Shown piece by piece: positions 9,401 through 48,768 of a DNA stretch of 64,000 nt. The stretch comes from an uncultured Veillonellaceae bacterium. Lineage in GTDB: Bacteria > Bacillota > Negativicutes > UBA1444. Below the pieces are notes generated by a model. That model was given only the letters and a program-made list of their open reading frames with translations, did not search any database and had not been told where the DNA came from. Where the stretch lies: the NCBI GenBank assembly GCA_964521625.1, contig CAZFSM010000003.1:143801-207800 (forward strand), in the 5' to 3' direction. A program made the translations under genes and the position numbers. Each line of letters starts with the position of its first letter. The first letter of the stretch is position 1.

Positions 9401-9666
9401 ACCGCATCATCCCAGCTGCCGAGAGACCATTCCACCCGCAGGCCCGTCTCCCGCTCCAGTGCCCGGATCAGGTCGGCTTCCATACCATCAGCTTCGCCTT
9501 TTGCATTGCGCATGATCTGCGGAGGATAGGCGGCATCATCGGCAGCCCGTATTGTCCTTGGCGCCGCCATGGCGAAGGAATTTACCATTATTAATAGAAA
9601 CGCAATCCCGACTATTCTTATCGAGAAAAACAAACTCTGTCTTTGCCACACGAGCTTTACCCTCAT
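6484..9666 (-). CDS. membrane sensor protein: periplasmic SBP_bac_3 domain + TM + coiled-coil/PAS domains + GGDEF + EAL (c-di-GMP cyclase/phosphodiesterase)
   Basis: 1060 aa. N-terminal solute-binding-protein family 3-like region, then hydrophobic helix. GGDEFVILL and RxGGDEF context present. EAL domain (QPIVNTTEQVVGMEALLRW...DDFGTGYSSL) present. Confidence 0.85.
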   Translation of the reverse strand: MRVKLVWQRQSLFFSIRIVGIAFLLIMVNSFAMAAPRTIRAADDAAYPPQIMRNAKGEADGMEADLIRALERETGLRVEWSLGSWDDAVKKLRNRQVEIIPGMNVTEERKQEFLFTRPYFEDRVVLFVPVDSFHIIGFDDLRDRRVGVQKGEVAGQLLRKVRPNLNFYEFDSQRELLQAVADRKVDAAAANYYAGKYWLRQIDLEKLVKTNGESLFINPFAIAVHPDEPELMRILDQALGRLQHSGELQRIKDKWLGETQTLWGLTRQELTLYAAVGMGIAGLIMLLAFLFVRWLQLRIAAATATIADQNMELQAAYEQLTAQNEELIAQGEELLSSEAKAKALLTSAPDMIVRISREGIYRDIYIPQGTDKFNLHAERTGQSIYQSIPAELADRFMQLIEAALATQSMQTLEYELEINGEIAFRESRVVPMTKDEVMIMVRDLTEKRATNRALEAAHQRLQDQHEQLQAHTEELSVLYSKLSVSEAALRQKVTELEESQQKLAASEARFRLALDAVNDVIYDWDLRTGKVQWSDRWEERLGFSFGSEGINIASFNAVVHPEDREQRFKALEDHLSGHAEYYMTEYRLKTKEGSYFWVLSRGKAVLDEQQQPIRILGSLTDVTEMKLREAKIRQLAYSDALTGLANRTRFLEALQEQLQDSVSLMRGGSVLFVNIDNFKNINDSFGHACGDELLKEVSRRLTGVVDSASVLARLGGDEFVILLKRDLQVDSFAERILALFAQPFEECGQRFLLSASIGISRYPDNGILPGDLLRCADTAMHAVKRTGKNAWKYYDAAMHETTLRKLQMEHNLRFALENKEFALHYQPIVNTTEQVVGMEALLRWDNPEQGRVSPADFIPLTEETGLIIPIGEWVLRSACVFARSLRRQEEDVLFVSVNISARQLVRDNFVDQVRCVLQETQLSPQALELEITETSLVESFELCTRKLQELRELGVRVALDDFGTGYSSLTYLKRLPIQVVKIDKSFIDDATGEDGSTAILGAIIELAHELGLQVVAEGVETESQWQVLAGRHCDMVQGYWISRPLPEDQFLQWLKKQRVN

Positions 9667-25463: not shown

Positions 25464-26240
25464 TCACACCTCCCTGAGCGCCTCTTCCGCGTCTTTGCGG
25501 ATGAGGGTCCAGATGTGGTCGCAGTAGCCGTTGAAACGGGTGAGATGCTCGACGCCGTCACGTCCCCGGCGCGGCAGTTCAATCGTTAAAATACTGTTGA
25601 TCCGTCCAGGTCGTCTCGACAAAACGACAACCCGATCCGCCAGATAGACCGCTTCCTGAATGTTATGGGTAACATAGAGCGTGCTGAGACGATGCTGCTC
25701 CCATATCCGCAGCAACTCTTCCTGCATCAGGGTGCGCGTCTGGGCATCGAGGGCCGAAAACGGTTCGTCCATCAACAGCAAATCCGGCTGAATCGCCAAT
25801 GTACGGGCGATTCCCGCCCGTTGACGCATCCCGCCGGACAATTGATGCGGATAGGAGTTTTCAAACCCGACCAACCCAACCAGTTCGATGTGGTAACGGA
25901 TGCGTTCCTGTCGTTCTTCGAGTGACAGGGCCATTTCCTCCAAGCCAAAGCCGATATTTTCCCGCACGGTACGCCAGGGGAACAGACCGACTTCCTGAAA
26001 CACCATTCCGACCGAAGGATCGCGGTCTTCCGCCAAGCCTTCGACGAAAATCCGGCCACACGAAGGCGCCAGCAATCCGCCCACCATGTTTAGCAGCGTC
26101 GATTTGCCACAACCGCTGGGTCCTACCAGCACAACAAACTCTTCTTCTTCGATACGCAGGCAGATGTTTTCCAGTGCGGTGACCGGACTCCCGTCCGGCC
26201 CCGCATACTGTTTTCCGACCTGGTCAACAACAATTCTCAT
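25464..26240 (-). CDS. ABC transporter ATP-binding protein, NitT/TauT (SsuB-like) family
   Basis: GPSGCGKST Walker A and LSGGMRQR signature. Confidence 0.85.
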   Translation of the reverse strand: MRIVVDQVGKQYAGPDGSPVTALENICLRIEEEEFVVLVGPSGCGKSTLLNMVGGLLAPSCGRIFVEGLAEDRDPSVGMVFQEVGLFPWRTVRENIGFGLEEMALSLEERQERIRYHIELVGLVGFENSYPHQLSGGMRQRAGIARTLAIQPDLLLMDEPFSALDAQTRTLMQEELLRIWEQHRLSTLYVTHNIQEAVYLADRVVVLSRRPGRINSILTIELPRRGRDGVEHLTRFNGYCDHIWTLIRKDAEEALREV

Positions 26241-27319
26241 TATTTTGCGGCGCCAAGCTTCTGCAGCGCCTCTTCCCAGATTTTACTGTCGACAACCTGG
26301 GCAGCCTGAACCGATTTCTCGATCATTTTATGGTTGAAATACCAGTCGATCTGGGTCTGGATATCGCTGGTCAGTAATTTACCATCCCGGTCCATGTATG
26401 GAAGCCCCAGCTTAATATCCTCCGCAGGCGCACCGGTATATTTGGCAATAATCCCAATAACTTCCTCGAAGTTGGCCCCTGGCGCCAATTTGCCGTCCTT
26501 CTTCACCAGCACAGCGTCATAGTAGTAGCGGCTGGACTTGATGTAAGCCGCCAGAAAACGCATCGCAACATCCCGGTTCTGCATAAAGTCCGGGGCGAAG
26601 AATATCGCTGATGTCTGGTAATCGATCGCATCGCCGACCTGGACCACGACTTTGCCATGTCCGGCTTTCTCGACCTTGGTGATATTGGGCTCGTTCAGGA
26701 TAACCGCGTCAACCTGTTTTCCCTGCAACGCCGCCATGACTGAACTGAGTTTGCCCAGAGGCACGACTTCCACGTCTGTCAGTTTCAGTCCTTTGGTTTC
26801 CAGCAGTCGACCCAGCATATAATGGAAGGTGGAACCGGTCTGGGTAATGCCGATCCGTTTCCCCTTCAAATCTTCCAGTTTCTTGGCACCGCCTTCCCAC
26901 AAGTCGGTGCGCATCAACAGCGCCGAAGAAGAATAGCCCTTCTGTTCACGCCCCTTGTCCGCAACAATTGACAGCTTTTGCCCGCCTGCCACCATGTTGA
27001 ACAAGCTGGCGGTAATTCCAGTAGCGCCAACCTGGACTTTATTCGAGGCTGTAGCCACCGCAATCGGGTGGGCAGCATCAAACCACTGCGGATCGATTTC
27101 AATTCCCTGTTCTTTAAAATAGCCTTTTTCCATGCCGATAAAAATCGGTGCGGTACTGGTCAGTTTCAAAATCCCGACCGAAACTTTCGTGGCCTGTGCC
27201 GGCGCCGCCGGAGCGACCGGTTTCGCCGGTTCTACCGATTTGCCGCAACCAACCAGCAAACTCGCTAAAACAAATAGTATCAGAATCCCAAAGATCAATC
27301 CTTTTTGCTGTTTGTTCAC
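26240..27319 (-). CDS. ABC transporter substrate-binding lipoprotein, NMT1/THI5/SsuA-like
   Basis: Lipobox LLVGCGKS; periplasmic-binding-like sequence. Confidence 0.7.
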   Translation of the reverse strand: MNKQQKGLIFGILILFVLASLLVGCGKSVEPAKPVAPAAPAQATKVSVGILKLTSTAPIFIGMEKGYFKEQGIEIDPQWFDAAHPIAVATASNKVQVGATGITASLFNMVAGGQKLSIVADKGREQKGYSSSALLMRTDLWEGGAKKLEDLKGKRIGITQTGSTFHYMLGRLLETKGLKLTDVEVVPLGKLSSVMAALQGKQVDAVILNEPNITKVEKAGHGKVVVQVGDAIDYQTSAIFFAPDFMQNRDVAMRFLAAYIKSSRYYYDAVLVKKDGKLAPGANFEEVIGIIAKYTGAPAEDIKLGLPYMDRDGKLLTSDIQTQIDWYFNHKMIEKSVQAAQVVDSKIWEEALQKLGAAK

Positions 27320-27671
27320 GCTAAAACTCCCTTTCTACCTTTCTACACTGCTGCCTGTTTATTTACCAAACGAGCTGCGGGCTCATTTGTCCTTGATTAT
27401 ATTACAACAAATTCGTTGCGGCAATAAAGCGAATTCAAAATGCTATGGTAGCATCGCAACACCACAGTGTCCAAAATACAGTACGGCAGATCAAAAAAAC
27501 GTCTACAATCGTCAACATTTTCCTGAGCAAAGCGAAAACCAGAAGGAATAATTCTGCCAAACCCGAATTAATTTCAATATTGCAAAACAACACTAGAATT
27601 GCACCTGCAGGAAAAGATGAGTCCGCATTCACCGCTGAAGTCTATAGTGTTTTTAGAGAGCACTAATAAAT

Positions 27672-27687
27672 TGGCACGATTATTGCA
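27672..27687 (+). promoter_or_regulatory. sigma-54 (RpoN) -24/-12 promoter TGGCACGATTATTGCA
   Basis: Perfect match to the TGGCACG-N4-TTGCW consensus, 83 nt upstream of the MCP-like gene at 27770, in a 450-bp AT-rich intergenic region. Confidence 0.6.
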
Positions 27688-27769
27688 AATAAAATAATAG
27701 TTGTATTTTTTGCCAAAATATTTCATAAGACGAACATGTGCGATTATATTTTAGGGAGGAGAACGATAC

Positions 27770-28615
27770 ATGTCCACTGAAGACAATGCGGTGTTGGAAA
27801 AATTTCTGCATGTGATGCCTCTATTGGGTGCTATGTTCTCGGCCGACATCGGTGTTGCCGTCACTGATCGGGAAAAATATCTGCTATACAAACCCGGGCG
27901 GCAATTGGACCTGAAGATCAGCGCCGGCACCCCACTTAAGGCCGGCACGGCCATCGTTCGCGCCATGAATGAAAATCGCCGCGTATCCGTTCGGGGAGAC
28001 AAAGCTACGTTTGGTTTACCGTACATTGCCACCGCAGTGCCAATTCAGGATAGCAATGGATCGGTCGTCGGCGGCGCCGTCATCATTGAATCGGTCGACC
28101 AGCAGGACAAGCTGACAGAAATGGCGGTCAAACTGGCTGACAGCACCAACACCCTCGCCAGCACCTCGCAGGAAATTTCTGCCCAGACTGAAGAAATCAG
28201 TGCGGTAAGTCGCGCTATGTCATTAGCTGCCAGTCAATCGCAAAACCGCCTGCAAGAAACCGATCAGGTGGTCGGATTGATCAAAGCCATCGCCGGTCAG
28301 ACCAATATGCTTGGCTTAAACGCCGCGATCGAAGCGGCCCGCGTCGGCGAGCAGGGGCGGGGTTTTGGCGTTGTTGCCGAAGAAATCCGCAAATTGGCCG
28401 CCTCGACGGGAGATTCCATCAAGCAAATTGAAGCGACCCTGCGGACGATTCGTGATGACAGCCGGAAGAACTACGAGCAGGCTTGCCGAATCGATGAAGT
28501 CATGCCGCAAATCGCGCAAGCGATCACGCAAGTGGCCGGCACAGTGCAGGAAGTTAATGAGATGGCCCGCAATCTGAATCAAATGGCCGCCGATCTGACT
28601 AAAAACCAGGCTTAA
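27770..28615 (+). CDS. soluble chemoreceptor-like protein: PAS-like N-terminal sensor + methyl-accepting chemotaxis (MCP) signalling domain (paralog 1)
   Basis: Highly conserved MCP core [34 protein letters not shown]. No TM segments. AGGGAGGAG RBS. Confidence 0.8.
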
Positions 28616-30002
28616 AACCACGGCAGAGAAAAACCAGTATACTGCGTTGAATATATCGATCTGAATACGATAATGGCGGCAAAGGACTGACTTCGACAAA
28701 AAGTTGCTCCAATGCCGCTTTGTGTTGTTCATCGCCAAAAAACACCGCGTCCTCACCGGCCTGAAGCGGCGATTCGCCTCGCCAATAATCATACTGGGAA
28801 AACCGCGAAGGTGTGAGCACCTGGACCATCGGCCGCCCCGGCAAATAGTACCAGGCGAGCGACGCCAATTTGTAGTCGGCCGCCAACACGTGTTTCGCAG
28901 TCAAGAGCTCCGGTCCGGCCGATCGGAACATCACATCATAGCCTAGCACCTGTCGTTTCATCACAAGTTGCGGCGGCAGAAAGCTAAAAGCCTCCGGTAT
29001 CTTTAGCAGAAGGATCAAGACAGCGCCCACGACAATCCCCGCGCGGTAAATATTTCTATACCGGAGGCACTCAAGCCACCGGGCAATCAAAACGATGCCT
29101 GTGACGTAGGCGGGCGCCGCCCAGTTGCCTTCCGGTCGCTTAAACAAGGCCGAATAGGCGAAAAACACCAATACAGTCAGGCAGGGCCAGAGTAAAAAAA
29201 CCTGCTTTTCATCAGCCAGAATTTTTCTCCAGGAACGAAACAAAACATACAACAATACTAAGAAAAACAGCGGATTCAGGGCGACAGTCTGAACGCCCAG
29301 ATATTCGAAGAAACTGCCCGGATTCAAAGTCTGCGCTGCCGCAAAGCCATGATTCAATTGAAATTGAAAAGAAACCCATTCATGGCGGTAATTCCAGAGG
29401 AGAACCGGCGAAAACACCAGCAAAGCCGTTCCGATCGAAAACCACACTGCTCGGTTGCCCAGCTGCCGACGATAAGAGGAAAACAGCAAAAAACCCAGTA
29501 CACCCGGCAATAGCAACACCGCCGTATATTTCGACAGCAACGCAAATCCGGCAGTCACGCCCGCCAGATAGTAATAACCCCGCCGATCACCAAACAACGT
29601 CCTCTGCAGGAACCAGAGCGTCGCCGTCCAGCCCAGGATCAGCGGCGCATCCGGCGTAGCCAGGCTAAACCCGAGCTGGGCCAGTGGCGACAATAAAAAA
29701 ATCAGCAAGGCACGATCTGCCACAGTAGCATTGAACAAATCTTTGGCCATCTGCCAAATCCCGAATCCCGTCAAGGTCATGCAGCCTAGCGGAACCAAAC
29801 GGATCAGCCATTCGGCATCGCCAAACACAGTCACCAACTTGATCAACCAGGCAATCATCGGCGGATGATCAAAATAAGAAAGCTGCAGATGCTTTGACCA
29901 GACCCAGTAGTAGGCCTCGTCAAAATGCAGCGGCAGCGTCATGTTATAAATCAGGTTAAATAGCACGACAAAGGCAAAAAAAGCAGCCGTAGACCGCTTC
30001 AT
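28599..30002 (-). CDS. glycosyltransferase family 39 (ArnT/PMT-like, GT-C) membrane protein
   Basis: Polytopic, with N-terminal DEAYYW-type loop ([27 protein letters not shown]) typical of GT39/83. Start [13 protein letters not shown]-coupled to the upstream GT2. Confidence 0.75.
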
Positions 30003-30724
30003 GAGGAAATGCTGGAGTCCAGGCGAAGCTTCCACACCATCAGCACCGCTTCAAGAAATATCTTGCGCGACATCTTGGATTTTCCTGCCGTTCGGTCTTC
30101 AAAAACGATCGGTGTCTCGAAGACGTGAAACCCTTGGCAACTGGCCCGATAGGTCATTTCGATCTGAAACGAATAGCCGTTGGATTTAATCGAATCCAAA
30201 TCGATGGCTTCCAGCACTTCCCGCCGGAAACACTTAAACCCGCCGGTCAAATCACGCAGAGAAAGTCCCAGGATTGTCCGGGCATACAAACTGCCGCCGC
30301 GACTGATAAATTTGCGCAGCAAACCCCAGTTTTTCACGCCGCCGCCTGCCACGTAACGACTGCCCAGCACCAGATCATGCGTCTTGATCGCAGCCAAAAA
30401 GTCCGGCAGATATTTCGGGTCATGCGAAAAATCGGCATCCATTTCAAAAATATAATCATAATCGCGAGCCAGCGCCCATTTGAAACCGGCGATATAGGCA
30501 GTGCCCAATCCCAGCTTACCGGCCCGTTTCAGCAAAAACAGCTTTCCTGGATACGTAGACTCCATCAAGCTTTCGACGATCTCATAGGTTCGGTCCGGCG
30601 AATTGTCATCGACAACCAGCACATGCGCCGCCGGGTCGGTCTGCGTGATCAGCTCCAATAATTTTTCGATATTGTCCCGCTCATTATATGTCGGAATAAT
30701 GATCAGATGTCCGGCCACGGTCAC
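29999..30724 (-). CDS. polyprenol-phosphate sugar synthase (GT2, Dpm1/Ppm1/ArnC-like), catalytic domain only
   Basis: IIPTYNE, VVDDNSPD and DADFSHDP motifs of GT2 polyprenyl-phosphate glycosyltransferases; 241 aa. Confidence 0.8.
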   Translation of the reverse strand: MTVAGHLIIIPTYNERDNIEKLLELITQTDPAAHVLVVDDNSPDRTYEIVESLMESTYPGKLFLLKRAGKLGLGTAYIAGFKWALARDYDYIFEMDADFSHDPKYLPDFLAAIKTHDLVLGSRYVAGGGVKNWGLLRKFISRGGSLYARTILGLSLRDLTGGFKCFRREVLEAIDLDSIKSNGYSFQIEMTYRASCQGFHVFETPIVFEDRTAGKSKMSRKIFLEAVLMVWKLRLDSSISS

Positions 30725-31182
30725 CCTTCCCTTCCATTCGTTTCGCCCGGTTCAGCCGTATCCGTCTTTTCGCCGAACGTGAACCGGGAATTCATAATGA
30801 AGTTTAAAATACTGACCAAGCCGATTGAAAACAGCTGGGCCAGCGTCTTATCCATCGCCAGCGCCTCGACAAACAGTCGCAACAATAACAGGTTCACGCC
30901 AAGATTCAGTACACTGACCGCCAAAAAGCGGAAATACTTGTTGCGGCGGCTACGAAAAGCCGCCTGTCCTTTGAAAGTCCAACGAAAATTCCAATAAAAA
31001 TTATTGGTCACGGCAAATAAAAAAGATACCACCGCCGCCATTAGATAATATAAACCGCTGTTTACCGCCAGCGCATAAACAGCCATGTTGACCAAAGTTC
31101 CTGACAACCCGACAACTGAAAACTTGATAAAACGTTTCACCCAATAATACCCTGCCTTGTTTTTTGACAAATTCTTTTTCAA
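30721..31182 (-). CDS. GtrA-family small membrane protein (putative polyprenyl-phosphate-sugar flippase)
   Basis: FIKFSVVGLSGTLVNM and 4 TM. Overlaps the GT2 start. Confidence 0.7.
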   Translation of the reverse strand: MKKNLSKNKAGYYWVKRFIKFSVVGLSGTLVNMAVYALAVNSGLYYLMAAVVSFLFAVTNNFYWNFRWTFKGQAAFRSRRNKYFRFLAVSVLNLGVNLLLLRLFVEALAMDKTLAQLFSIGLVSILNFIMNSRFTFGEKTDTAEPGETNGREG

Positions 31183-34388: not shown

Positions 34389-34434
34389 AGAACGACCTTG
34401 AAGCAATCGCCAGCAACAAGGTCGTCCTTTTTTC
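34389..34434. terminator. bidirectional hairpin between convergent hydF and the HD-GYP regulator
   Basis: AAAAAAGAACGACCTTG...CAAGGTCGTCCTTTTTT. Confidence 0.5.
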
Positions 34435-35498
34435 TATTCATACGCTGCAATGATTTTTTCCTCAACCAACAGGAAGGCATCTACAATTCGCGAATCAAAC
34501 TGAGTCCCGCTACCATCCAGGATGATCTTTATCGCGGCATCATGGTTGACGGCATCTTTGTAGCAACGTTTTGATCGCAATGCGTCATACACATCCGCCA
34601 CTGCCATGACACGGGCAGATAGCGGGATTTTTTCGCCGCTCAGTCCATCGGGATAGCCCGAACCGTCCCATTTTTCATGATGTGATCTGGCAATCTCTAT
34701 GCCCAGTGAAATAAAAGCGTTGTGTGGATAGCGGGATTGAACCATTGCCAAGGTTTTGGCCCCGATCAATGTATGCTGCTTCATGATTTCAAATTCCTCC
34801 GTTGAAAGCTTGCCGGGCTTGAGCAAAATTGCGTCGGCAATTCCTACCTTGCCCACATCATGCAACGGACTTGCCTGTTCCATGTATTTGACAAATTGCA
34901 TATCGACCGGATAGTTTTCGTCGTTCTGACCGTACAATGCCTCCGCGAGCAGCTTGCAACAAGACTGTACCCGGTCGAGATGCTGTCCGGTTGCATCGTC
35001 TCTGGACTCAGCCAATTTGGCCAGAGCAAAGATCGTACCCATCTGGGCTTCGGTGATTTCACGCACCTGCTCCTGCACCATGGCCTCCAGGTACTGTTGA
35101 TAACGATAGAGTTTTAAGTGAGTTTCGACACGCGCCTCGACTTCGATCAGTTCAAATGGTTTTGTCACGTAGTCAACGCCACCGGCTGCAAAGGCTTTCA
35201 CTTTGTCAGCCGCATCATCCATTGCGCTGAGAAAAATCACCGGAATAGACCGCCATTCCGGAGTTTTTTTTATGTGCGCACAAACTTCCAGCCCGCTCAT
35301 CCCTGGCATATTGATATCCAACAATATTAAATCCGGCTTACTGATCCGCATAATCTGCAACGCCAGGTCACCGCTCAGTGCAATTCTTACATTGTAGCCC
35401 TTGCCCCAAAACATGCGCGCCAAAACTTCCACATTTATCGGTACGTCATCTACGATCAATAAAGTTGGCAGCGTCTTGCTCGACGGTTCATTTAACAT
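34434..35498 (-). CDS. response regulator with HD-GYP c-di-GMP phosphodiesterase domain
   Basis: REC domain (LIVDD...DINMPGMSG) plus HD and HHEKWDGSGYP motifs. Confidence 0.85.
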   Translation of the reverse strand: MLNEPSSKTLPTLLIVDDVPINVEVLARMFWGKGYNVRIALSGDLALQIMRISKPDLILLDINMPGMSGLEVCAHIKKTPEWRSIPVIFLSAMDDAADKVKAFAAGGVDYVTKPFELIEVEARVETHLKLYRYQQYLEAMVQEQVREITEAQMGTIFALAKLAESRDDATGQHLDRVQSCCKLLAEALYGQNDENYPVDMQFVKYMEQASPLHDVGKVGIADAILLKPGKLSTEEFEIMKQHTLIGAKTLAMVQSRYPHNAFISLGIEIARSHHEKWDGSGYPDGLSGEKIPLSARVMAVADVYDALRSKRCYKDAVNHDAAIKIILDGSGTQFDSRIVDAFLLVEEKIIAAYE

Positions 35499-38400
35499 CT
35501 TGCGCCCCCCCCGCCAACAACTTTAGCAATGCAGGAAAATCGAAGCTCTTTGCGCATTTGCGCAATTCATTGACCATTTCGATATCACTGCCTTCCATTT
35601 CATCAAGCAACGCCAGTATCCGATAATATTCCCCGCCGGCAGCAGCCTTTCGCAGCATTTCCAGCAAAGCCGGATCTATCTTGTCCAGACGTATCGACCT
35701 ATCGCCAGCAAATATTGTTTCCGGATACGCCGGTCGTATTACCGGCCGCGGTGCAACGTATTCATATTGCAATCCCAATAGTTGCCGAATCTTTTCCAGC
35801 AGTTCGCGTTCCTGAAACGGCTTGCTGACAAATTCGGCCGCACCCGCAGCGATTACCTTCTCACGTTCATCACCAAACACACTGGCAGTAACAACAATAA
35901 CGGGAACTTGGCGATTGATCGCCTGCATCTGGCGCATTGCCTCATATCCGTCCATCCGAGGCATTTTCAGATCCATCAACACAATATCCGGTTGCCGTTC
36001 TCGGAACAAAGCCACACCGGTTTGTCCATCGAGTGCACTTCGGGTAAAAAAACCCAGAGTGCTAAGAATTCGTTCCAGCAATTCACAGTTCACCGCTTCA
36101 TCGTCCACAATCAACACTTTCCATTGCCGACCGTCTTTGACAATGCCGGATATACGCCGAGTTTCCTGTAGCGACTCCAATTCATCATCATTTGCCGTAC
36201 GCAGCCAAATATCGAAAGAAAAGACGCACCCTTTCCCCTCCTGACTGACAAGCGAAATATCGCCACCCATCATGCGAATGTACTCCCTGCAAATCGCCAG
36301 TCCGAGACCAGTACCGACCCCACTCTCCTGTCCACGCCTGGTCTGGGTGAAGGGTTGGAATAACTGCCGCTGCTCCGCTTCGGCAATACCCGGACCTGTA
36401 TCTTCAACACTGATCAACAAATGCAATTTCTTGTCGCTTTCGCTTTCAACTGCCACTTTTAATGCAATATGGCCAATTGCGGTAAATTTCACGGCATTGC
36501 TGAGCAGATTGATCAATACCTGTCGTAACCGGCCTGCGTCCGCCACAACCATTCTCGGCACTTCGCCAATGCACTCCACAGAAAATCCCAGCCCTTTTTC
36601 GGTCGTGCGCAAACGAAACATCTGGTCAATTTCGCGCAGCATTGTGTGCAAGTCAAAAACCAACGGTTGCAAAACAGTCCGCCCGGCCTCCATTTTAGAA
36701 ATTTCCAATATATTATTTATCAGGCCTAATAAGTGGCGACCGGCATTATTGATGTTTTCGAGATAGCCATATTGCTGTCCGTTCAGTTCCGCCTCGCGTT
36801 GCAACAATTGCGAAAAACCAAGAATCGCATTCATCGGAGTGCGGATTTCGTGCGAAACATTTGCAACAAATGCACCTTTTGCTTTATTTGCGGCTTCTGC
36901 AGCTTCCTTGGCCTGAACCAGTTCTTCGTTCATGGCTGTCATTTCTTCGTTCAGCGCCATAAGTTGACTGGTTCGCTCGTTAACCTTAACTTCCAGTCCG
37001 TCTTTGGCCTGAAGCAGCAATTCTCCCGCCTGTCTGATATCCGTTATGTCTCTGATAACGCCAACCAGGAAATCAACGCCATCGCCCCCGCGGTAAAGAG
37101 TTTTTTTCGTGACAATGGTATGGATTGTCCCGTCTGCACCGGTAATTTTTTCTTCATTAGTATTTTCCTGGCCGGTAACAAATACCAGTTCATCCTTTTC
37201 CCAAAACACATCTGCTTCCGCCTTGGGAAAAAAATCATAATCGCTTTTGCCGATCAAATCTTGTCGGCTTGTTCCGATCAATTCACACAATGCAGTGTTC
37301 AGCAATATCCAGTTATGCTGGCGGTCTTTGACAAAAATCGGATCGGCAATCGTATCAATGATCTTGTCGAGGAAGTTGCGCGACTCCTCCAGGGCAACTT
37401 TGGCCTTCCTGCGATCGGTAATGTCGCGGATCGATTCGATTGCACCAACAACCTGGCTGTCGCTATTGTAAAGCAGGCGGGTAACGCCCCACAGTTCCCG
37501 GACCGGTCCGCCCTGGACCGGCACCTCGGCCTCGGCCGTCAACAATTCACCATCAAGCTGAACATTATTATACTTTTGTGCAAGTTCCGCCTCAGTTTTG
37601 AACGCCAAGTCAATCAATATCGGCCGCCGCTCGCCATAAAACGGCAACGCATACTCATAATCGCCCTTGCCGAGCATATCTGCGGCCTTGACGCCGGTCA
37701 GTCTTTCCATAGCCCGGTTCCATGTCGTAATTTTTCCTGCACAGTCGACTGCAAAGGTTGCATCAGGAAAAAATTCGATGATTTCCTTCAAGCGCAGTTC
37801 CGACTGCACAAGCGCTTCTTCCGCTTGTTTACGTTCCGTTATGTCTTCCAGCGTCTCCACTGCACCTAATATATTACCACGGGCATCTTTTATTGCGGTG
37901 GCGGTAAAATACAGCCACCGACCAGACTGTCCCAGTGCCGGGAAAAAGTCGATCGCCTCATAAGCGTCCTCGATCAGTTTGGATTTGCGATATTTTCCGG
38001 CATACATCGCCTCAATCGCCGCATTATCTTTTTGAATGAGCAGGTCAGCCATACACGGACGCTCCGACTGATAAAAAGCATGCCAGTGTCGATTGCCGGC
38101 AAGCACGGACTCGGACTTAACGCCGCTGAGTTCCTCCAACGCCTTATTCCAGTGGGTAACGTTATGATTTTGATCAATCACAAATTGCGGTATTGGCGAT
38201 CCATCCAGCAAGGTCTGTAATTTATGCACCATTTCGGCCAATAGGTTTTCCGAATCGCGCAACGCGGCTTCGATATGTTTACGACTGGTAATATCCCGGA
38301 TGATAACAAGCGCATTTTGATTGGATCCGGCAACGATTCTCGCCTCGTAAAAATCACTTTCTTCGTTTGCCTGATACTGATATTCAATTATCCTAACTGT

Positions 38401-39477
38401 TTTGTCCGCTAATGCGCGCTTGAGCTGCGCCATCAGGCTTTGGGCAATATCCGCCGGAAAAATCGCATCGATATTTCGGCCACCATATCCCCAGTCCGCC
38501 TTACCTTCCTTTAAAGCCCCCTCACGCACCTCTTGCACAATACCATCGCTGCGAACCGAAAGAATCAGGTCGGGAATCGCCTCAAGAACTGCATGCAACT
38601 CGCCTGTTCTGCGTTGAACAGCCTTTTTCAGGCCAAAACTCCAGACAGCGAGGATAATCAGCAATACAACAACAGCGCCTAGCGCCAGCAACGCCCCTCT
38701 GCCAATTTCGCTTTTTTGCAATGCCTCGCCCAGCCAACGTTTGTCGATTGCAGCGTACTCATCGGCAGAAACCCCGGCAAACCCCGCTTCGATTATCTGC
38801 ATCAAAGCAACACTATCTTTTTTTACGGCACGGTGGAACTGTCCGGTATTGACTGGCGCTGTGACTCTAAATTCATCCTGCAGGCCCAGTTTGTTCAGAT
38901 AATATAGTGCCGGCGGCTTATCCATCAGAAAAACTACGATTTCTCGCCGTTTCGCCGCTTGGATCATCACTTCGTAACTATCGAAAAAAACCAGATCGTG
39001 TATATTGTGGCGAAACAGAAGATTCATCGCGTCATCGCCACTTTTCACGCCTACTTTAAACCCTTTCAAACTATTCATCGTTTCGATTCCGCTAATGTTC
39101 CGGTTAAAAAAAATAGCCACATCCAATGTGGCATAGGGTTGGGAAAAATCATAAATTCTCCGCCGTTCATCGTTGGCAAAAATGGTGTCAATAACGTCAA
39201 AATCGCCATTCTCCATGGCAGTAAGGGCTTTGCCCCAATCCATGGCGGTAAGCTCAATTTTTCGCCCGGTCTTTCGGCTCCACAATTCCCACTGATCTAT
39301 CAAGATTCCCTGCAACTTCCCGTTTTGATCACGGAATGAATATGGGGGATAGTTGTCATCCATGACGACTTTTATCATCACGTCTGGCGACGCAGCCGTT
39401 GCATCAGCGCCCACAACGAACAGGCACAACAATACCAACAACATAACGCCAACCCAGCCCTGCTTCGTCCGGTTCAT
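35488..39477 (-). CDS. hybrid sensor histidine kinase: two periplasmic SBP_bac_3 domains, TM, several PAS domains, HisKA, HATPase, two REC domains
   Basis: 1329 aa. H-box VSHEIRTPMNAILGF. G-box region. Two REC domains (LIVDDEAVN...; DIVLMDLKMPRMDG). Overlaps the downstream HD-GYP regulator by 11 nt. Confidence 0.85.
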   Translation of the reverse strand: MNRTKQGWVGVMLLVLLCLFVVGADATAASPDVMIKVVMDDNYPPYSFRDQNGKLQGILIDQWELWSRKTGRKIELTAMDWGKALTAMENGDFDVIDTIFANDERRRIYDFSQPYATLDVAIFFNRNISGIETMNSLKGFKVGVKSGDDAMNLLFRHNIHDLVFFDSYEVMIQAAKRREIVVFLMDKPPALYYLNKLGLQDEFRVTAPVNTGQFHRAVKKDSVALMQIIEAGFAGVSADEYAAIDKRWLGEALQKSEIGRGALLALGAVVVLLIILAVWSFGLKKAVQRRTGELHAVLEAIPDLILSVRSDGIVQEVREGALKEGKADWGYGGRNIDAIFPADIAQSLMAQLKRALADKTVRIIEYQYQANEESDFYEARIVAGSNQNALVIIRDITSRKHIEAALRDSENLLAEMVHKLQTLLDGSPIPQFVIDQNHNVTHWNKALEELSGVKSESVLAGNRHWHAFYQSERPCMADLLIQKDNAAIEAMYAGKYRKSKLIEDAYEAIDFFPALGQSGRWLYFTATAIKDARGNILGAVETLEDITERKQAEEALVQSELRLKEIIEFFPDATFAVDCAGKITTWNRAMERLTGVKAADMLGKGDYEYALPFYGERRPILIDLAFKTEAELAQKYNNVQLDGELLTAEAEVPVQGGPVRELWGVTRLLYNSDSQVVGAIESIRDITDRRKAKVALEESRNFLDKIIDTIADPIFVKDRQHNWILLNTALCELIGTSRQDLIGKSDYDFFPKAEADVFWEKDELVFVTGQENTNEEKITGADGTIHTIVTKKTLYRGGDGVDFLVGVIRDITDIRQAGELLLQAKDGLEVKVNERTSQLMALNEEMTAMNEELVQAKEAAEAANKAKGAFVANVSHEIRTPMNAILGFSQLLQREAELNGQQYGYLENINNAGRHLLGLINNILEISKMEAGRTVLQPLVFDLHTMLREIDQMFRLRTTEKGLGFSVECIGEVPRMVVADAGRLRQVLINLLSNAVKFTAIGHIALKVAVESESDKKLHLLISVEDTGPGIAEAEQRQLFQPFTQTRRGQESGVGTGLGLAICREYIRMMGGDISLVSQEGKGCVFSFDIWLRTANDDELESLQETRRISGIVKDGRQWKVLIVDDEAVNCELLERILSTLGFFTRSALDGQTGVALFRERQPDIVLMDLKMPRMDGYEAMRQMQAINRQVPVIVVTASVFGDEREKVIAAGAAEFVSKPFQERELLEKIRQLLGLQYEYVAPRPVIRPAYPETIFAGDRSIRLDKIDPALLEMLRKAAAGGEYYRILALLDEMEGSDIEMVNELRKCAKSFDFPALLKLLAGGAQDVK

Positions 39478-39644: not shown

Positions 39645-40826
39645 TTACGGTTTAACAGTGGTCTTATAGACCATTTTGCCGTCTTTCATCTCGATGATTA
39701 CCGCACTCTTTACAGCGTCGTGGTTCTCGTTGAGGGTGGTGGCGCCGGTAACCGCCGGGAAATCTTTGGTGGCGACGAGAGCGGCAGTGATTTTCGCAGA
39801 ATCGGCTGCGCCGGCCCGTTTGATTGCGTCGACCAGGACGTAGGCGGCATCATAGCCGAGAACTGCCATCGCGTCAGGCATTACACCATATTCTTTTTTG
39901 TAGGCATCAACGAATTTTTTCGAGGCCGGGCTGGAATCTTCCGGTGAGTAGTGATTGGTGAAGTAGGTGTTGTTCATGCCGGCAGCGCTGCCGATTTCAA
40001 CCAGTTTGGGCGAATCCCAGCCGTCGCCGCCGACGATCGGCATCATTAGGCCAATTTCACGGGCTTGTTTGGCAATCATGCCGACTTCTTCATAGTAACC
40101 AGGCAAGTAGATGACTTCCGGGCTCATGCCTTTGATCTTGGTCAGGATGGCTTTGAAGTCTTTGTCTTTTTGCAGATATGCTTCTTCGCCGGCAATCGTG
40201 CCGCCGCCTTTGGTATAAGCTTCCTTGAAGAATTTGGCCAGGCCTTTGCTGTAGTCGCTGGAGTTGTCAATCATGACAACCGCTTTTTTCAGTTTCAGGT
40301 CTTTCAGCACGAAATTCGCGCCAACCGTACCTTGGAACGGATCGATGAAACAGACGCGGAAGGTGTAGGGTTTGGCTTTGCCGGTTTTTTCATCAACCGT
40401 AACTTTGGGGTTGGTTGTCGCTGCAGCGACGAAAGGAATCTTGCTGGCTTCGTTAACTGCCGAACCGGCAATGCCGTTGGAGCTGGTGGTGAAACCGACT
40501 ACGGCAACCACTTTGTCCTGGGTGATGACTTTGGTCATCGCATTGGCTGATTCGGAAGGTTCGCCTTTGTTGTCAGCCGTCACGGTGGTGATTTGTTTGC
40601 CGAGCACGCCGCCGGCTGCATTGATTTCTTTGAAGGCCAGTTTGGTTCCGTTATTGGCGGCGGTGCCGAATGAAGCGGTGCCACCGGTCAATTCATAGAC
40701 AACACCGATTTTGATATCCTTGGATTCTGCCGGTTTCGCCGCAGGCGCTCCGCCACCGCAACCGGTCACCGCGAACGCAACAAGAACCAATAAGGCCAAG
40801 GCAAACTTCAGACTACTTTTTTTCAC
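39645..40826 (-). CDS. orphan ABC substrate-binding lipoprotein, Leu/Ile/Val-binding protein family
   Basis: GTG start (VKKSSLKF) with AAGGAGGG RBS. Lipobox VTGCGGG. Confidence 0.7.
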   Translation of the reverse strand: MKKSSLKFALALLVLVAFAVTGCGGGAPAAKPAESKDIKIGVVYELTGGTASFGTAANNGTKLAFKEINAAGGVLGKQITTVTADNKGEPSESANAMTKVITQDKVVAVVGFTTSSNGIAGSAVNEASKIPFVAAATTNPKVTVDEKTGKAKPYTFRVCFIDPFQGTVGANFVLKDLKLKKAVVMIDNSSDYSKGLAKFFKEAYTKGGGTIAGEEAYLQKDKDFKAILTKIKGMSPEVIYLPGYYEEVGMIAKQAREIGLMMPIVGGDGWDSPKLVEIGSAAGMNNTYFTNHYSPEDSSPASKKFVDAYKKEYGVMPDAMAVLGYDAAYVLVDAIKRAGAADSAKITAALVATKDFPAVTGATTLNENHDAVKSAVIIEMKDGKMVYKTTVKP

Positions 40827-40966
40827 AAAAACACCCTCCTTAAATATTATCAACTACAATTTTAATTGTCTGATCCCCTATACTCTGGTTAAGGCCCCCC
40901 TTCACCGTTGGTTGTTGCTGTGTTTGACGAAAACTGCAATTTTGATCCATAATTGAAAAAAGAAGC

Positions 40967-41026
40967 TTTGGGCAAAATACCCGCTGGATATTTTACCAAA
41001 AGCTTCTTTGCTTTTGCTATAATCAC
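40967..41026 (-). terminator. long hairpin terminator after rocA-like gene
   Basis: AAGAAGCTTTGG...CCAAAAGCTTCTT with nested AAAATA/TATTTT, followed by a T-run on the minus strand. Confidence 0.45.
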
Positions 41027-41110
41027 GCAATCATTTGTCTTCCCCAAATGCCCTTGAAGATGATTATAGACCTCAATATGCAATTTTACAAGTGGTTTTT
41101 GATAAAAATG

Positions 41111-42658
41111 TTACATTTTTTCTGCAACAACCTTCGCTTGCATGAATAATAGTAAATAATCGGCGCCACCAGCCTTGGAATCGGTACCCGACATATTGAA
41201 GCCGCCGAAGGGTTGCACGCCGACCAACGCACCGGTGCATTTGCGATTGAGATACAGGTTGCCGACATGGAAATCGCGGCGGGCCTGTTCCAATTTGGCC
41301 CGGTTGCGGGAGTAAACCGCCCCGGTCAGGCCGTACTCGGTGTCGTTGGCGATACGCAGCGCATCGGCAAAATCTTCGGCCTGGGTAATCGCCACCACTG
41401 GGCCAAAAATTTCTTCCTGGGCAATCCGTGATTTCGCCGGTGCGTCGGCAAACACAGTCGGCTCGATGAACCAGCCTTTTTCGCCTGCCGTATTGCCGCC
41501 GGCAACCAATCTGGCTTCGCTTTTACCGATTTCAATATAGTCGAGGATTTTTTTGTAGGCGCTTTCATCAACCACCGGACCCATGTTGACGCCGTATTTG
41601 GCGGCTGGCCCCACGGTCAGCGCTTTGGTTTTCGCCGCCACTTTGGCCACAACTTCATCATAAACACTCTTGACTATAATCGCCCGTGAACAGGCCGAGC
41701 ATTTCTGGCCCTGGAAACCAAACGCCGAGGCGACAATGCCGTTGGCCGCTTCTTCCAAATCGGCTTCCTCATCGACCACGATTGCATCCTTGCCGCCCAT
41801 TTCCGCCACAACCCGCTTGATCCAGATCTGGCCTGGCGCAACATCAGCCGCCAACTTATTGATACGCAGACCGACTTCCTTGGAGCCGGTGAAGTTGATG
41901 AACCGTACCTGCGGGTGCGATACCAGCACATCGCCGATGCTGCCGCCGCTGCCGGGCAGATAGTTGATCACACCGGCCGGCGCACCAGCCGCTTCGAACA
42001 GTTCCATCAATTTAGCCGCAATCACCGGTGTGCTGCTGGCTGGTTTCATGATGACCGTATTGCCTGCCACCACCGCAGCGGCAACCATGCCGGCCAGAAT
42101 CGCCAGCGGGAAATTCCAGGGCGGAATGACGACACCGACGCCGAGCGGGATATAGAAGCACTCGTTCTGTTCGCCGGGCACGGCGATGACAGGCATGCCC
42201 GCCGCATAGCGGAGCATTTCCCGTCCATAGTATTCCATGAAATCGATCGCCTCGGCCGTATCGGCATCGGCTTCGGCCCAGTTCTTGCCGGCTTCCTCGA
42301 CCAGCCAGGCCGAGTATTCGAATTTACGCCGACGCAGAATCGCCGCCGCCTTGAACAGCAGGCGGGCCCGCACTTCCGGCGCTACATGTTTCCAGCTGGA
42401 AAAAGCTTCTTGCGCTGCTTTGACGGCCTGGTCAGCCAGTTCAGCATTGGCCCGGGCCACAGTGCCGATGACTTCCGAGAAGCAGGAGGGGTTCACCGAG
42501 GTGATGCGGGCTTCGGTGTCAATCGCTTTGCCAGCAATCTTCAGCGGATAGTGGCGGCCTTTTTCGGACGCAACCAGTTGCAGCGCCGCCTCCATGGCCG
42601 CTTTGTTCTCGGGGATGCTAAAATTCGTGAACGGTTCGGGTTGATACGCTGTCTGCAT
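41111..42658 (-). CDS. rocA: 1-pyrroline-5-carboxylate (L-glutamate gamma-semialdehyde) dehydrogenase, RocA-type
   Basis: N-terminus [14 protein letters not shown]...KGRHYPL closely resembles B. subtilis RocA. ALDH family. Confidence 0.85.
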
Positions 42659-42689
42659 AATATAAGCCCTCCTCAATATTTCATCTTAA

Positions 42690-43847
42690 CTATACTACCG
42701 ATGGTTCGATAAACAGGTCGCCGCGGGCAAACCGGCCGGCGTCCAGTAATTCAACCGGCAAAGCGGTTTTCAGGCCCAGCAGCTGTTCGGCGACGATCTG
42801 GCCGGTAATCGGCGCGATCATGAAGCCATGGCCGCTGAAGCCTGCCGCCACATGAAAGCCTTCCACGTCACCGGCCGGCCCGAGGATCGGCTGGCGATCC
42901 GGCGACATATCGTACAACCCGGCCCATTGCCGCACTACATTGAGTCCGGCCAGCGGCGGCAGGATCTTGACGATCCGGCGGGCCATCTCACCGAGGAACT
43001 GCCAACTGGACTCGGTGTTGAAGCTCTCCGGTTCATCGGGGTGGCCGATACCCATGATAAAACTGCCATGCGGACTTTGCTGGCAATACAGGTTGTGGTG
43101 GAAACTCATCACCATCGAGTCCTGCATCGGTTCGACCGGTTCGGTCACGAGTATTTCATGCCGCTCGGGATAAATCGGCAGTTCGACGCCAACCATCCGG
43201 CCCAGCTGTTTGGAATAACCACCAGCCGCCACGACTACCCGTGGGGTACTGATAGTACCCCACCGGGTCTTGACCCCGGTGATCCGGCAACATTCCGCCT
43301 CGATTCCGGTCACTTCGTTATCGGTGCGGATCTCCACGCCATGGCGCTGCGCCGCTTTCGCATAGGCGGCCGTCGCCTTGAACGGGTTGCAGTGGCCGTC
43401 TTTGGCGCAGAAGGTCGCGCCGAGCAGCCCGGCCGTGTTCAGATGCGGCACGATCTCTTTCGCTTCGTCCGGCGTCACCCAACGGGACGGAATCCCCAGC
43501 GAATTTTGCAATAGCAGGTTTTTTTTGAACTGGGCCGCCATCTTTTCCGTATAGGCCAGCAACAGATAGCCGCCCTGTTTCAGTTCGATATCGACATCGA
43601 CGTCCAGCAGCTGCGGCAGCTGTTCCAGCATCCGGGTGCTTTCCCGCGACAGCAGGCAATTGGTTTCGGTTCCCCACTGCATCCGCATGCCGGCGCCGCA
43701 GCGTCCGGTGGCCCCACTGGCCAGGTAGCCGCGTTCCAAAAGCACCACTTTGCCTGCGCCGAGCCGGGCCAGGTTATAGGCAGTAGCGCAGCCGACGATT
43801 CCGCCGCCGATTACCACTACATCCGCTGTATCATTCATCCGCGCCAC
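42690..43847 (-). CDS. FAD-dependent oxidoreductase (sarcosine oxidase beta / archaeal-type L-proline dehydrogenase beta subunit-like)
   Basis: VVVIGGGIVGCATAY dinucleotide fold; DAO-family length. Confidence 0.8.
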   Translation of the reverse strand: MARMNDTADVVVIGGGIVGCATAYNLARLGAGKVVLLERGYLASGATGRCGAGMRMQWGTETNCLLSRESTRMLEQLPQLLDVDVDIELKQGGYLLLAYTEKMAAQFKKNLLLQNSLGIPSRWVTPDEAKEIVPHLNTAGLLGATFCAKDGHCNPFKATAAYAKAAQRHGVEIRTDNEVTGIEAECCRITGVKTRWGTISTPRVVVAAGGYSKQLGRMVGVELPIYPERHEILVTEPVEPMQDSMVMSFHHNLYCQQSPHGSFIMGIGHPDEPESFNTESSWQFLGEMARRIVKILPPLAGLNVVRQWAGLYDMSPDRQPILGPAGDVEGFHVAAGFSGHGFMIAPITGQIVAEQLLGLKTALPVELLDAGRFARGDLFIEPSVV

Positions 43848-44118
43848 CTCCGGAGAGCGCCCCCAGGCTGATGGTCGCCACCGGTTGGCGAAACGTCGGC
43901 AGCGCGATTTCAGCCAGCGGTTTGCCTGTGGTTTTGGCCAGTTCCTGCGCCACCAGCGGCATACAAGTCCGGCCCTGGCATGGCCCCATGCCGCAACGGC
44001 AACTGCGTTTGACCTCTTCGGTGCTCAGGTTTCCCTCGCCAATACTCTGGCGAATTTCCGACAATGTTATATCCTCACACCGGCAAATGATGATCTCTTC
44101 GCCGAGATTCTCGCTCAT
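43831..44118 (-). CDS. BFD-like [2Fe-2S]-binding small protein
   Basis: CRCEDIT...CRCGMGPCQGRTC Cys pattern; 95 aa. Confidence 0.6.
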   Translation of the reverse strand: MSENLGEEIIICRCEDITLSEIRQSIGEGNLSTEEVKRSCRCGMGPCQGRTCMPLVAQELAKTTGKPLAEIALPTFRQPVATISLGALSGGGADE

Positions 44119-44609
44119 AGCGCCACTTCCTTTCGCCGCCGGATATTCCGCACATCCATCGCAACCGTTTTATCCACCGCCAGCCACAGCACCGTCGTCC
44201 GGTTGGCCTGCTGCTGCACCCGTTGCACAGTCGCCGCACCAACCGATTTTCCCGCCCGGTCGATCGCCTCGACGACTTCGCCGCTGGCCGGCAACGGGGC
44301 GAATTCATACGGTATTTTTAGCAATGCTGCCTCAGGCGACCAGTCATAGTCGATGACAAAAATCGCCAGGCCTGGGCACCGCGTGACACAGAGTCCGCAG
44401 CCGTTGCATTTTGCTTCGTCAAACACCGGCCGCTCGCTAATGCTTCCCGGCATTGTGATCGCGCCGCGCGGACAGGCTTCGGCGCAGGGATTGCAGGGAA
44501 TCTGCTGAAAACACTCGACAACTGCCACCGGCCCTTGTTTCAGCCGTTCATCCGCCGGCAACACGGCCCGCAAATCTTCGGTCGTTGGAATTCCGTCCAC
44601 TGCCAGCAT
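44115..44609 (-). CDS. 2x[4Fe-4S] ferredoxin-domain protein (PDH1 gamma-like)
   Basis: CNPCAEACP and CNGCGLCVTRCP motifs. Probable start MLAVDG, ATGA-coupled. Confidence 0.6.
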   Translation of the reverse strand: MLAVDGIPTTEDLRAVLPADERLKQGPVAVVECFQQIPCNPCAEACPRGAITMPGSISERPVFDEAKCNGCGLCVTRCPGLAIFVIDYDWSPEAALLKIPYEFAPLPASGEVVEAIDRAGKSVGAATVQRVQQQANRTTVLWLAVDKTVAMDVRNIRRRKEVAL

Positions 44610-44610
44610 C

Positions 44611-45699
44611 TTACCCCACCTCTCCCAGCATGACTTTGCACAGGCCATTGCAGACTTTGGCGCTGACCGGAGCGCTGCGCAGCGCATTCAACTGTGACTT
44701 CGCCTCGTGATAGAGGGCGGCAAAGTTTTCGCTCTGGTAACGCAGGGCAAAGGCCGCTGCCAGTCCCGCCAGTTTCCCTTCGACCATCGCCGCCGATGCC
44801 TCTTCGACGCCGGCCACATCGCCCGCCACATAGATATTGTGATGGGTCGTCAATAAATCGGCATTACGCCAGGGAACATAGCCGCCGAGTTCCGGCACGA
44901 ACTCCATCTTGCAACCGGCCTGCCAGAGCAGCTCGGTCAATGGGCAGAGGCCGACAGCCAGGCACAACCCGTCCACGGCGAAGTCCCCTTCCGTACCGGG
45001 GATCTGCGCCCATTTTTCGTCCAGCTGGCAGACGGTAACGCCGCCCAGCCGGTCAGTGCCATAGGCGCGTTTGATCGTGTGGCCGGTATAGATCGGCACG
45101 CCGCAGCGCTGGATTTTCGATGCATGGACCCAGTAGGCGCCGATTTTGGGCGCCGCCTCGATGATCGCCGCCACTTCGACTCCCGCCTGCAGTAGTTGGT
45201 AGGCGACAATCACGCCGATATTGCCAGCGCCGACCATTAGCACCCGCTCGGCTGGCTTGACACCGTAAACATTCATCAGGGTCTGCACCGCGCCGGCCCC
45301 GTAAATGCCGGGCAGGTCGTTGTTGGGAAACGCCAGCGTCTTTTCCGATGCACCGGTCGCCACAATCAACTTCTTCGGTTTCACCAGACAAAACGAGTCG
45401 CCCTGTTTAACCGACAGCACCCCGTCAGGGTAATAGCCTAGGGCGGTGGCGTTCTTCCATACGGTGACATTGGACAGCGGCGCCAATTGATCCATCAGTT
45501 TATGGGCGATTTCGAAGCCCCGTTCGCCGGCGTATTCTTCGCGCGAACCAAAAAATTTATGCGTCTGTTTGATCAGCTGGCCGCCCAGTTCAGTCCCCCG
45601 TTCCAGCAGCAACACCTGCGCCCCCATTTCGGCCGCCTGGATCGCCGCCATCAGGCCAGCCGGACCAGCACCGATTATGGCGATATCTGTATGCCTCAT
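44611..45699 (-). CDS. FAD/NAD(P)-binding pyridine-nucleotide-disulfide oxidoreductase family protein (PDH1 alpha / HcnB-like)
   Basis: IAIIGAGPAG and VLMVGAGNIG dinucleotide motifs. Confidence 0.8.
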   Translation of the reverse strand: MRHTDIAIIGAGPAGLMAAIQAAEMGAQVLLLERGTELGGQLIKQTHKFFGSREEYAGERGFEIAHKLMDQLAPLSNVTVWKNATALGYYPDGVLSVKQGDSFCLVKPKKLIVATGASEKTLAFPNNDLPGIYGAGAVQTLMNVYGVKPAERVLMVGAGNIGVIVAYQLLQAGVEVAAIIEAAPKIGAYWVHASKIQRCGVPIYTGHTIKRAYGTDRLGGVTVCQLDEKWAQIPGTEGDFAVDGLCLAVGLCPLTELLWQAGCKMEFVPELGGYVPWRNADLLTTHHNIYVAGDVAGVEEASAAMVEGKLAGLAAAFALRYQSENFAALYHEAKSQLNALRSAPVSAKVCNGLCKVMLGEVG

Positions 45700-48675: not shown

Positions 48676-48768
48676 CTGCGATTAGAAGCATCAAGGCACT
48701 CGTAAATTGGCAGTAATGGCAGCCACTTTTACATCATCACCCATCAGCTCCAGCCGCGCGACCAAAAC

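Follow-up and report, generated by a model that had tools for sequence, protein, structure and literature searches.

A putative sigma-54 promoter with paired upstream sites precedes a YfmS-type chemoreceptor gene in a group of Sporomusaceae-like genomes

The chemoreceptor gene and its putative promoter

The window analysed here is the whole of a 64-kb stretch of DNA from an uncultured, Sporomusaceae-like member of the Negativicutes. It contains a gene for a soluble chemoreceptor of the YfmS type, and this gene is preceded by an AT-rich spacer of 450 bp (27320-27769; 37.6% G+C compared with 52.8% for the whole window). Within the spacer lies what is probably a promoter for sigma-54 (RpoN/SigL), and on its far side begins a divergently transcribed operon for an ATP-binding cassette (ABC) transporter. 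The features that belong to the chemoreceptor gene are as follows.

27468..27485, + strand: candidate activator site 1, TGTCCAAAATACAGTACG, a degenerate copy that lies 32 bp (three helical turns) upstream of site 2
27500..27517, + strand: candidate activator site 2, CGTCTACAATCGTCAACA, of the form YGTCTA-N9-ACA (TGT/CGT-N12-ACA), 172 bp upstream of the TGG of the promoter
27672..27687, + strand: putative sigma-54 promoter core, TGGCACGATTATTGCA, with -24 TGGCAC, -12 TTGCA, and GG and GC 10 bp apart
27698..27769, + strand: predicted 5' untranslated region of about 72 nt, its start deduced from the -12 GC at 27685-27686
27754-27761, + strand: strong Shine-Dalgarno sequence, GGGAGGAG, read directly from the sequence
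27770..28615, + strand: target gene, encoding a 281-amino-acid soluble chemoreceptor of the YfmS type (Pfam MCPsignal, AlphaFold2, Foldseek)

The initial annotation of this DNA reported an exact match to the RpoN consensus at 27672..27687 in the AT-rich spacer. We confirmed this match and found that it is the sole zero-mismatch match to TGGCACG-N4-TTGCW on both strands of the window. Dinucleotide-preserving shuffles of the window gave a chance expectation of 0.01 exact matches per window, and 1 of 100 shuffles contained one. When up to two mismatches were allowed, the window contained 13 matches and 14 were expected; thus, only the exact match and its position are informative. As there is a T directly 5' of TGGCACGATTATTGCA, the element also fits the longer consensus YTGGCACGrNNNTTGCW. 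Measured against TGGCAC-N5-TTGCW, it has no mismatches, and its GG and GC dinucleotides are exactly 10 bp apart. The element lies upstream of the gene on the same strand and points toward it, as the initial annotation had it; the gap to the ATG at 27770 is 82 nt. Transcription would start near 27698, judging from the position of the -12 GC. We propose that 27672-27687 is the sigma-54 promoter of the chemoreceptor gene; to this reading, which takes the dependence on sigma-54 from the sequence, we assign a probability of roughly 0.75.

The gene encodes a cytoplasmic chemoreceptor of the YfmS type, as judged by fold and domain. A full-length Pfam scan matched a single domain, MCPsignal (PF00015, 1.7e-26, residues 158-276), and the 14-residue motif at the tip of the hairpin is invariant in the family alignment. 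The AlphaFold2 model, built with a 46-sequence alignment, has a mean pLDDT (predicted local distance difference test) of 88. It consists of an N-terminal helix and a five-stranded PAS/Cache-like unit (about residues 1-108), followed by the long helical hairpin (about 110-278) of a methyl-accepting chemotaxis protein (MCP). The top Foldseek match in the PDB was Bacillus subtilis YfmS (9a72_A, the YfmS chain in an integrative YfmS-CheW model; E 3.4e-24, TM 0.81, 33% identity over 277 columns). Its N-terminal sensor, which is PAS/sCache-like, matched the KinD, CitA, TlpA and formate-sensor domains as well. When the sequence of the N-terminal domain was compared with the PDB, it gave a marginal match only (8py0 at E 0.24), and the AlphaFold2 model served instead to assign the fold of the sensor. 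We found no convincing transmembrane segment in the protein: the top 19-residue Kyte-Doolittle value is 1.61, and it falls inside the segment modelled as the sensor fold. Such a receptor would be expected to signal through CheW and CheA to control motility. No che gene was found among the long open reading frames of the window that were scanned against Pfam, a scan that covered part of the frames. The transcript is likely to be monocistronic because a convergent PMT_2 gene (28599-30035) overlaps the 3' end of 27770-28615.

There are two further paralogs in the window (30-36% identity), at 58803-59660 (+) and at about 60996-61852 (-), so that three YfmS-type genes lie within 64 kb and the initial label 'paralog 1' for the gene at 27770 was correct. 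Each of the three adjoins catabolic genes: paralog 2 precedes an aminotransferase gene, and paralog 3 follows an amidohydrolase gene, after a strong hairpin at ~61885-61925. Only paralog 1 has a sigma-54 promoter. None was found before either of the other two, or before the ~60%-identity paralog groups of other genomes. A close homolog is labelled 'yfmS 9' in one source, which suggests that the YfmS family has expanded in Sporomusaceae.

Conservation of the element and paired upstream sites

A genome scan yielded ten orthologous loci (L003-L012; 78-97% protein identity), all from metagenome-assembled genomes of Negativicutes/Sporomusaceae. The divergent ABC operon is the same in all of them wherever that flank is covered. 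We aligned the spacer of the window with those of the nine loci that include it. The mean column identity of these 10 spacers is 46%, and the columns TGG.A...TT..TGC (T27672 to C27686) are among those that are invariant in 10/10; these are the positions that sigma-54 reads. In a sliding analysis of 16 columns, 27672-27687 scored 0.894, third among the 16-mers of the spacer. The two higher scores belong to the divergent promoter, at its -10 region, and to the ribosome-binding site (RBS) of the binding-protein gene of the ABC operon. The element is also carried by five more metagenome orthologs (80-92% identity), one of which, L050, has CGG for TGG. In total, the element is present in 15/15 orthologous loci examined in which the protein is 78% identical or more, at a distance from the start codon that ranges from 57 to 103 nt across orthologs.

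The more distant orthologs (68-77% identity), which come from three further lineages, differ in this respect. No such GG-N10-GC element was found in the syntenic orthologs L043/L044 (77%), L048 (70%) or L049 (68%). At the equivalent position, L048 and L049 contain sigma-70-like extended -10 boxes (TGTTATACAAT and TGTTATAAAAT). As the sigma-54 promoter is kept at 78% identity and above and is missing in the more distant orthologs, it is, on these alignments, confined to one sub-clade of Sporomusaceae-like genomes and conserved inside it.

The sigma-54 element is accompanied by a pair of upstream sites. In every one of the first 10 loci, two copies of YGTCTA lie upstream of the -24 element. The starts of the two copies are separated by 20-22 or 31-32 bp, equal to two or three helical turns, and the copies lie 99-204 bp from the TGG. 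In a motif matrix made from these 20 sites, GTC is present in 20/20, the following T in 18/20 and the A in 20/20; the three bases of ACA are present in 17, 16 and 15 of the 20, and the nine middle bases are unconserved. A phased YGTCYA pair was found in 14/15 promoter-bearing loci, compared with ~0.001 per locus (~0.1%) in shuffled regions. In the remaining locus, a canonical site is paired with a degenerate one at a distance of 32 bp. The orthologs L043, L048 and L049, in which the sigma-54 promoter is lacking, have no paired sites either; their divergent sigma-70 promoter (GATTATATTACA box) is retained. This co-occurrence suggests that the sites belong with the sigma-54 promoter and not with the ABC operon, and we propose the YGTCTA-N9-ACA pair as a candidate enhancer of that promoter. 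Elsewhere in the window, the site pattern has one unrelated intragenic match, which is not above chance. The initial annotation had a sigma-54 promoter drive the soluble MCP-like gene; the orientation of the element, its conservation in 15/15 loci and the phased sites all support this suggestion.

Another conserved block, 27536-27574, is situated between the upstream sites and the -24/-12 element and consists of a short inverted repeat followed by CCGAATT. The arms of the repeat co-vary among orthologs (CAGAA..TTCTG, GGCAG..CTGCC, CGGCA..TGCCG). The block is present in most promoter-bearing loci and is missing in L010 and L011. It could bind an accessory or DNA-bending protein.

Other candidates in the spacer were dropped. 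The perfect palindrome described at about 27443..27457 turned out to be an interrupted inverted repeat, ATGCTA-tgg-TAGCAT, with 6-bp arms at 27440-27454. The TGCACC half-site does exist, at 27600-27605 rather than at 27599; it stands alone, and the full NtrC consensus TGCACC-N5-GGTGCA is absent from the spacer. We rejected both the repeat and the half-site as regulatory sites because these segments differ even in L003, the ortholog with 97% protein identity (CTGCAGCTGCAGG at the half-site); the half-site segment is missing or altered across the orthologs. Rfam searches gave no family for the whole window at gathering thresholds, and for the spacer at E values up to 5 they gave only meaningless matches at the level of small nucleolar RNAs. 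A riboswitch or small RNA in the spacer was therefore dropped as well.

Candidate activators and rival explanations

This organism probably uses sigma-54, as the window contains both an activator gene with a GSFTGA motif and a second promoter that is conserved in two other genomes. The activator gene, at 46175-47674 (-), is the sole enhancer-binding-protein gene in the window, just as first reported. Its product has a PAS domain, a sigma-54 AAA+ domain (Sigma54_activat) with GSFTGA, and an HTH_8 domain. The best NCBIfam match is PrdR, at 548 bits where the cut-off is 795. The second promoter is the following.

46063-46048, - strand: second putative sigma-54 promoter, TGGCACGGTTCGTGCA, directly downstream of the activator gene and conserved in L084 and L085

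It precedes an operon with Fer2_4, Pyr_redox_2, Fer4, DAO, Aldedh and binding-protein genes (about 39645-45999, -), an arrangement reminiscent of oxidase clusters of the D-amino-acid or (hydroxy)proline type. Two 16-bp TGTCG-N6-CGACA palindromes, 20 bp apart, fall within the activator gene near its 3' end (one of them at 46193-46208, -), and the first lies 145 bp upstream of TGGCACGGTTCGTGCA.

The initial annotation hinted that this PrdR/RocR-like protein, encoded 18 kb away, might also activate the chemoreceptor promoter. It is the product of the only activator gene in the window. Both types of site share a TGTC core and occur in two copies, two or three helical turns apart, and L043 has neither the chemoreceptor promoter nor, in the syntenic position, the operon of this activator. 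However, the activator gene has its own adjacent promoter, and the sites there have a different geometry: they are TGT-N10-ACA sites of 16 bp, whereas the chemoreceptor sites are YGT-N12-ACA sites of 18 bp. No site of the activator-operon type was found in the chemoreceptor spacer, where the sole match to TGT/CGT-N10-12-ACA has N12. In addition, L086 and L087 (genome of L011) keep the chemoreceptor promoter and its sites and have no activator gene in their 20-kb context. In both, nothing of the Aldedh-to-activator-to-Crp segment is present between the binding-protein gene and hutH. The promoter-less L043 has the same deletion at the syntenic site. As the segment is missing both in L086/L087 and in L043, the activator at the syntenic site does not track the chemoreceptor promoter. 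Compared at syntenic sites and within 20 kb, the protein encoded at 46175-47674 is thus probably not the cognate activator, and we regard a role for it at the chemoreceptor promoter as quite unlikely. No activator gene was found within 3-10 kb at any orthologous chemoreceptor locus, which agrees with the first suggestion that a dedicated activator is not adjacent.

Several points weigh against a sigma-54 promoter with an upstream enhancer. The gene rpoN is not within the 64-kb window, and no cognate activator was identified. The orthologs share descent, so that the conservation counts are not independent events. Site 1 of the window is degenerate (TGTCCA...ACG). Moreover, a sigma-70-type sequence, TTGGCA-16-AATAAT (27671-27698; 10/12 in the promoter scan), overlaps the sigma-54 element. 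The element could therefore be a sigma-70 (SigA) promoter, with its -35 TTGGCA at 27671-27676 and its -10 AATAAT at 27693-27698, or the gene could be transcribed mainly in this way. The sigma-70-like -10 boxes of L048 and L049, which lie at the same place, suggest that a sigma-70 promoter is probably ancestral. Yet the leading T of TTGGCA is variable in the orthologs (GTGGCA, CTGGTA, CTGGCA), and a TAnnnT hexamer 16-18 bp downstream is not in register in L004, L007, L010, L011 and L012. The invariant part is the GG-N10-GC frame with TGG.A and TGC, for which sigma-70 has no need, and paired sites at -100 to -200 would be atypical for sigma-70 activation. We find it improbable that sigma-70 accounts for the element or for most transcription of the gene, but it could make a minor contribution in the window genome.

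The location of the YGTCTA sites raises another objection. They sit between two divergent promoters, at distances that vary from 36 to 97 bp to the minus-strand -10 and from 99 to 204 bp to the TGG, and the pair could be the operator for a regulator of the ABC operon; the sigma-54 activator would then be bound elsewhere or act from solution. On the other hand, L043, L048 and L049 keep the ABC operon with its minus-strand promoter, and the sites are gone from them along with the sigma-54 promoter; the form and distance of the pair also fit published activator sites (PMC6615313). We therefore consider an operator for the ABC operon unlikely. As AT-rich spacers yield short motifs by chance, the element could also be a functionless match. 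This is very improbable given the expectation of 0.01 exact matches per window and the retention of the element in 15/15 spacers with diverged flanks.

Neighbouring genes, a model and known systems

The divergent operon (27319 to ~24668) encodes an NMT1/SsuA-like binding protein (26240-27319), an ATPase and a permease. Its promoter is of a different class.

27396..27424, - strand: sigma-70-type promoter of the divergent ABC operon, with -35 TTGCCG and -10 TATAAT; 10/12 in the promoter scan; outside the sigma-54 unit

The sequence TGATTATATTACAA (27394-27407) is invariant in all orthologous spacers, including those that lack the sigma-54 element, and GCGGCAA (27419-27425) is nearly invariant in the same spacers (GCAGCAA in L043). 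The conservation of the 14-mer TGATTATATTACAA exceeds the needs of a -10 box, and an overlapping operator is possible. A similar sequence, GCGATTATATT, is found again at 27740-27750 in the chemoreceptor leader, where it is loosely conserved. Directly 5' of the GTG start of the binding-protein gene, in the minus-strand leader, lies a tandem CTTTCTAC repeat (CCCTTTCTACCTTTCTAC; 27324-27346). This block is the second best conserved in the spacer (0.93), and L043 has more copies of it (CTTTCTACCTTTCTACCGGTTCTACCTTTCTACCGGTTCTACC). The repeat may serve a regulator that binds RNA or DNA, or it may belong to an unusual RBS context. A sigma-54 promoter for the ABC operon on the minus strand, TGGCAGAATTATTCC, was rejected, as TTCC replaces TTGC and the frame is lost in L004.

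Taken as a whole, the window is a setting of amino-acid and nitrogen catabolism, with amt-glnB, hutH, and genes for a formiminotransferase, glutamate dehydrogenase, amidohydrolases and transporters of the branched-chain amino-acid type. Two large sensors start with a periplasmic amino-acid-binding domain of the SBP_bac_3 type. One, with 1060 amino acids, is a PAS-GGDEF-EAL protein (6484-9666, -); the second, a PAS hybrid histidine kinase, has 1329 amino acids (35488-39477, -) and is followed by an HD-domain response regulator (34434-35498, -). These sensors represent added signalling capacity in a neighbourhood centred on amino acids. A cluster of GtrA, GT2 and PMT_2 glycosyltransferase genes (28599-31182, -) lies downstream of the chemoreceptor gene. 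It is absent in L010, L011, L043 and L086, where the chemoreceptor gene is followed directly by a TM1266-like gene, a Lyase_1 gene and hydF; thus, the cluster is a variable insertion among otherwise collinear genomes. The activator gene is adjoined by a gene for an ankyrin-repeat protein of 241 amino acids (47950-48675, +; Ank_2 2.6e-24). Ankyrin-repeat proteins are uncommon in bacteria. The region 48001-49000 is locally AT-rich (44% G+C compared with 52.8% for the window).

We have formulated a model that builds on the motif and its conservation, on the phased sites, which are shown to co-occur with the promoter, and on the fold of the protein. We propose that the sigma-54 holoenzyme binds the -24 TGGCAC and -12 TTGCA sequences as a closed complex that would be unable to open alone. 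An activator encoded elsewhere in the genome would bind the two sites at 27468-27485 and 27500-27517, ~170-205 bp upstream, and would loop the DNA to contact the polymerase. The activator would then hydrolyse ATP to open the promoter. Transcription from near 27698 would give a monocistronic mRNA for the YfmS-type receptor, and the receptor would be made only while the signal of the activator is present. Of these steps we infer the looping, the role of the sites and the inducing signal. A bolder reading goes further, namely that in one sub-clade of Sporomusaceae an ancestral sigma-70-type promoter of this orphan receptor gene gave way to a sigma-54 promoter with a tandem enhancer, so that receptor synthesis came under an unlinked activator that recognizes YGTCTA-N9-ACA. 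We hold this scenario as a whole to be about evenly balanced between right and wrong.

Sigma-54 promoters with tandem upstream sites are already well known, and the choice of a chemoreceptor as the target is mildly unusual. The nearest parallel in form comes from the Clostridiales, in which Nie et al. (2019) described fifteen groups of activators that use TGT-N10-12-ACA sites (PMC6615313). Most target operons in that survey have multiple sites, the majority of which are placed 100-250 bp ahead of the promoter (PMC6615313). The promoter in the window likewise fits TTGGCAT-N5-TTGCT, and the type, number and distance of its sites are alike (PMC6615313). As for activators that are not beside their targets, 38 of them, in 12 groups, were found in the Clostridiales (PMC6615313). 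The differences are that the host here belongs to the Negativicutes and is Sporomusaceae-like and that the target is a chemoreceptor. Chemotaxis is not mentioned in the survey of Clostridiales sigma-54 regulons (PMC6615313).

The arrangement also resembles that of a classical sigma-54 promoter. At glnAp2 of Escherichia coli, two NtrC sites about three helical turns apart lie more than 100 bp upstream of the -24/-12 promoter and act through DNA looping. The window similarly has two sites three helical turns apart and more than 100 bp upstream. Unlike at glnAp2, the target is not a nitrogen assimilation gene.

A third comparison concerns the receptor itself. YfmS of B. subtilis is an orphan receptor (PMC5137498), and yfmS is listed among genes earlier reported to be controlled by SigD (PMC5200910). 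The protein described here is like YfmS in its size of ~280 amino acids, its cytoplasmic sensor with a short MCP hairpin, and its fold. It is unlike YfmS in its putative sigma-54 promoter, and no TAAA-N15-GCCGATAT motif was found in the spacer. Documented control of chemoreceptors in Firmicutes, yfmS included, is by sigma-D.

Sigma-54 flagellar hierarchies are found in Vibrio, Pseudomonas and Campylobacter. In Desulfovibrio vulgaris there are sigma-54-dependent chemotaxis operons, and the promoters without predicted upstream sites include some that are linked to chemotaxis (PMC4641369). As in D. vulgaris and the Proteobacteria, a chemotaxis-related gene in the window lies behind a putative -24/-12 promoter. 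However, those regulons are flagellar or concern the cell exterior, and they belong to Proteobacteria and Desulfobacterota; here we find a single receptor gene with clear paired sites in a catabolic neighbourhood. The initial annotation called sigma-54 control of such a gene unusual. This is fair for the Firmicutes, in which yfmS is under sigma-D (PMC5200910), but D. vulgaris provides a precedent (PMC4641369).

If the promoter and its sites are functional, this locus would be a natural case of the replacement of one promoter class by another between close relatives, one that has no bearing on a long-standing open question. The phased YGTCTA-N9-ACA pair is a motif that can guide searches of Sporomusaceae genomes for the activator and for other members of its regulon. 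If the bolder reading is true, this would be the first chemoreceptor of the Firmicutes/Negativicutes shown to be controlled by sigma-54 rather than by sigma-D, and it would exemplify substrate-inducible, 'metabolism-linked' taxis amid genes for amino-acid and nitrogen catabolism. Given a functional promoter, these anaerobes could couple the synthesis of the chemoreceptor, through a sigma-54 activator, to a particular metabolic or environmental signal, and not to the flagellar programme.

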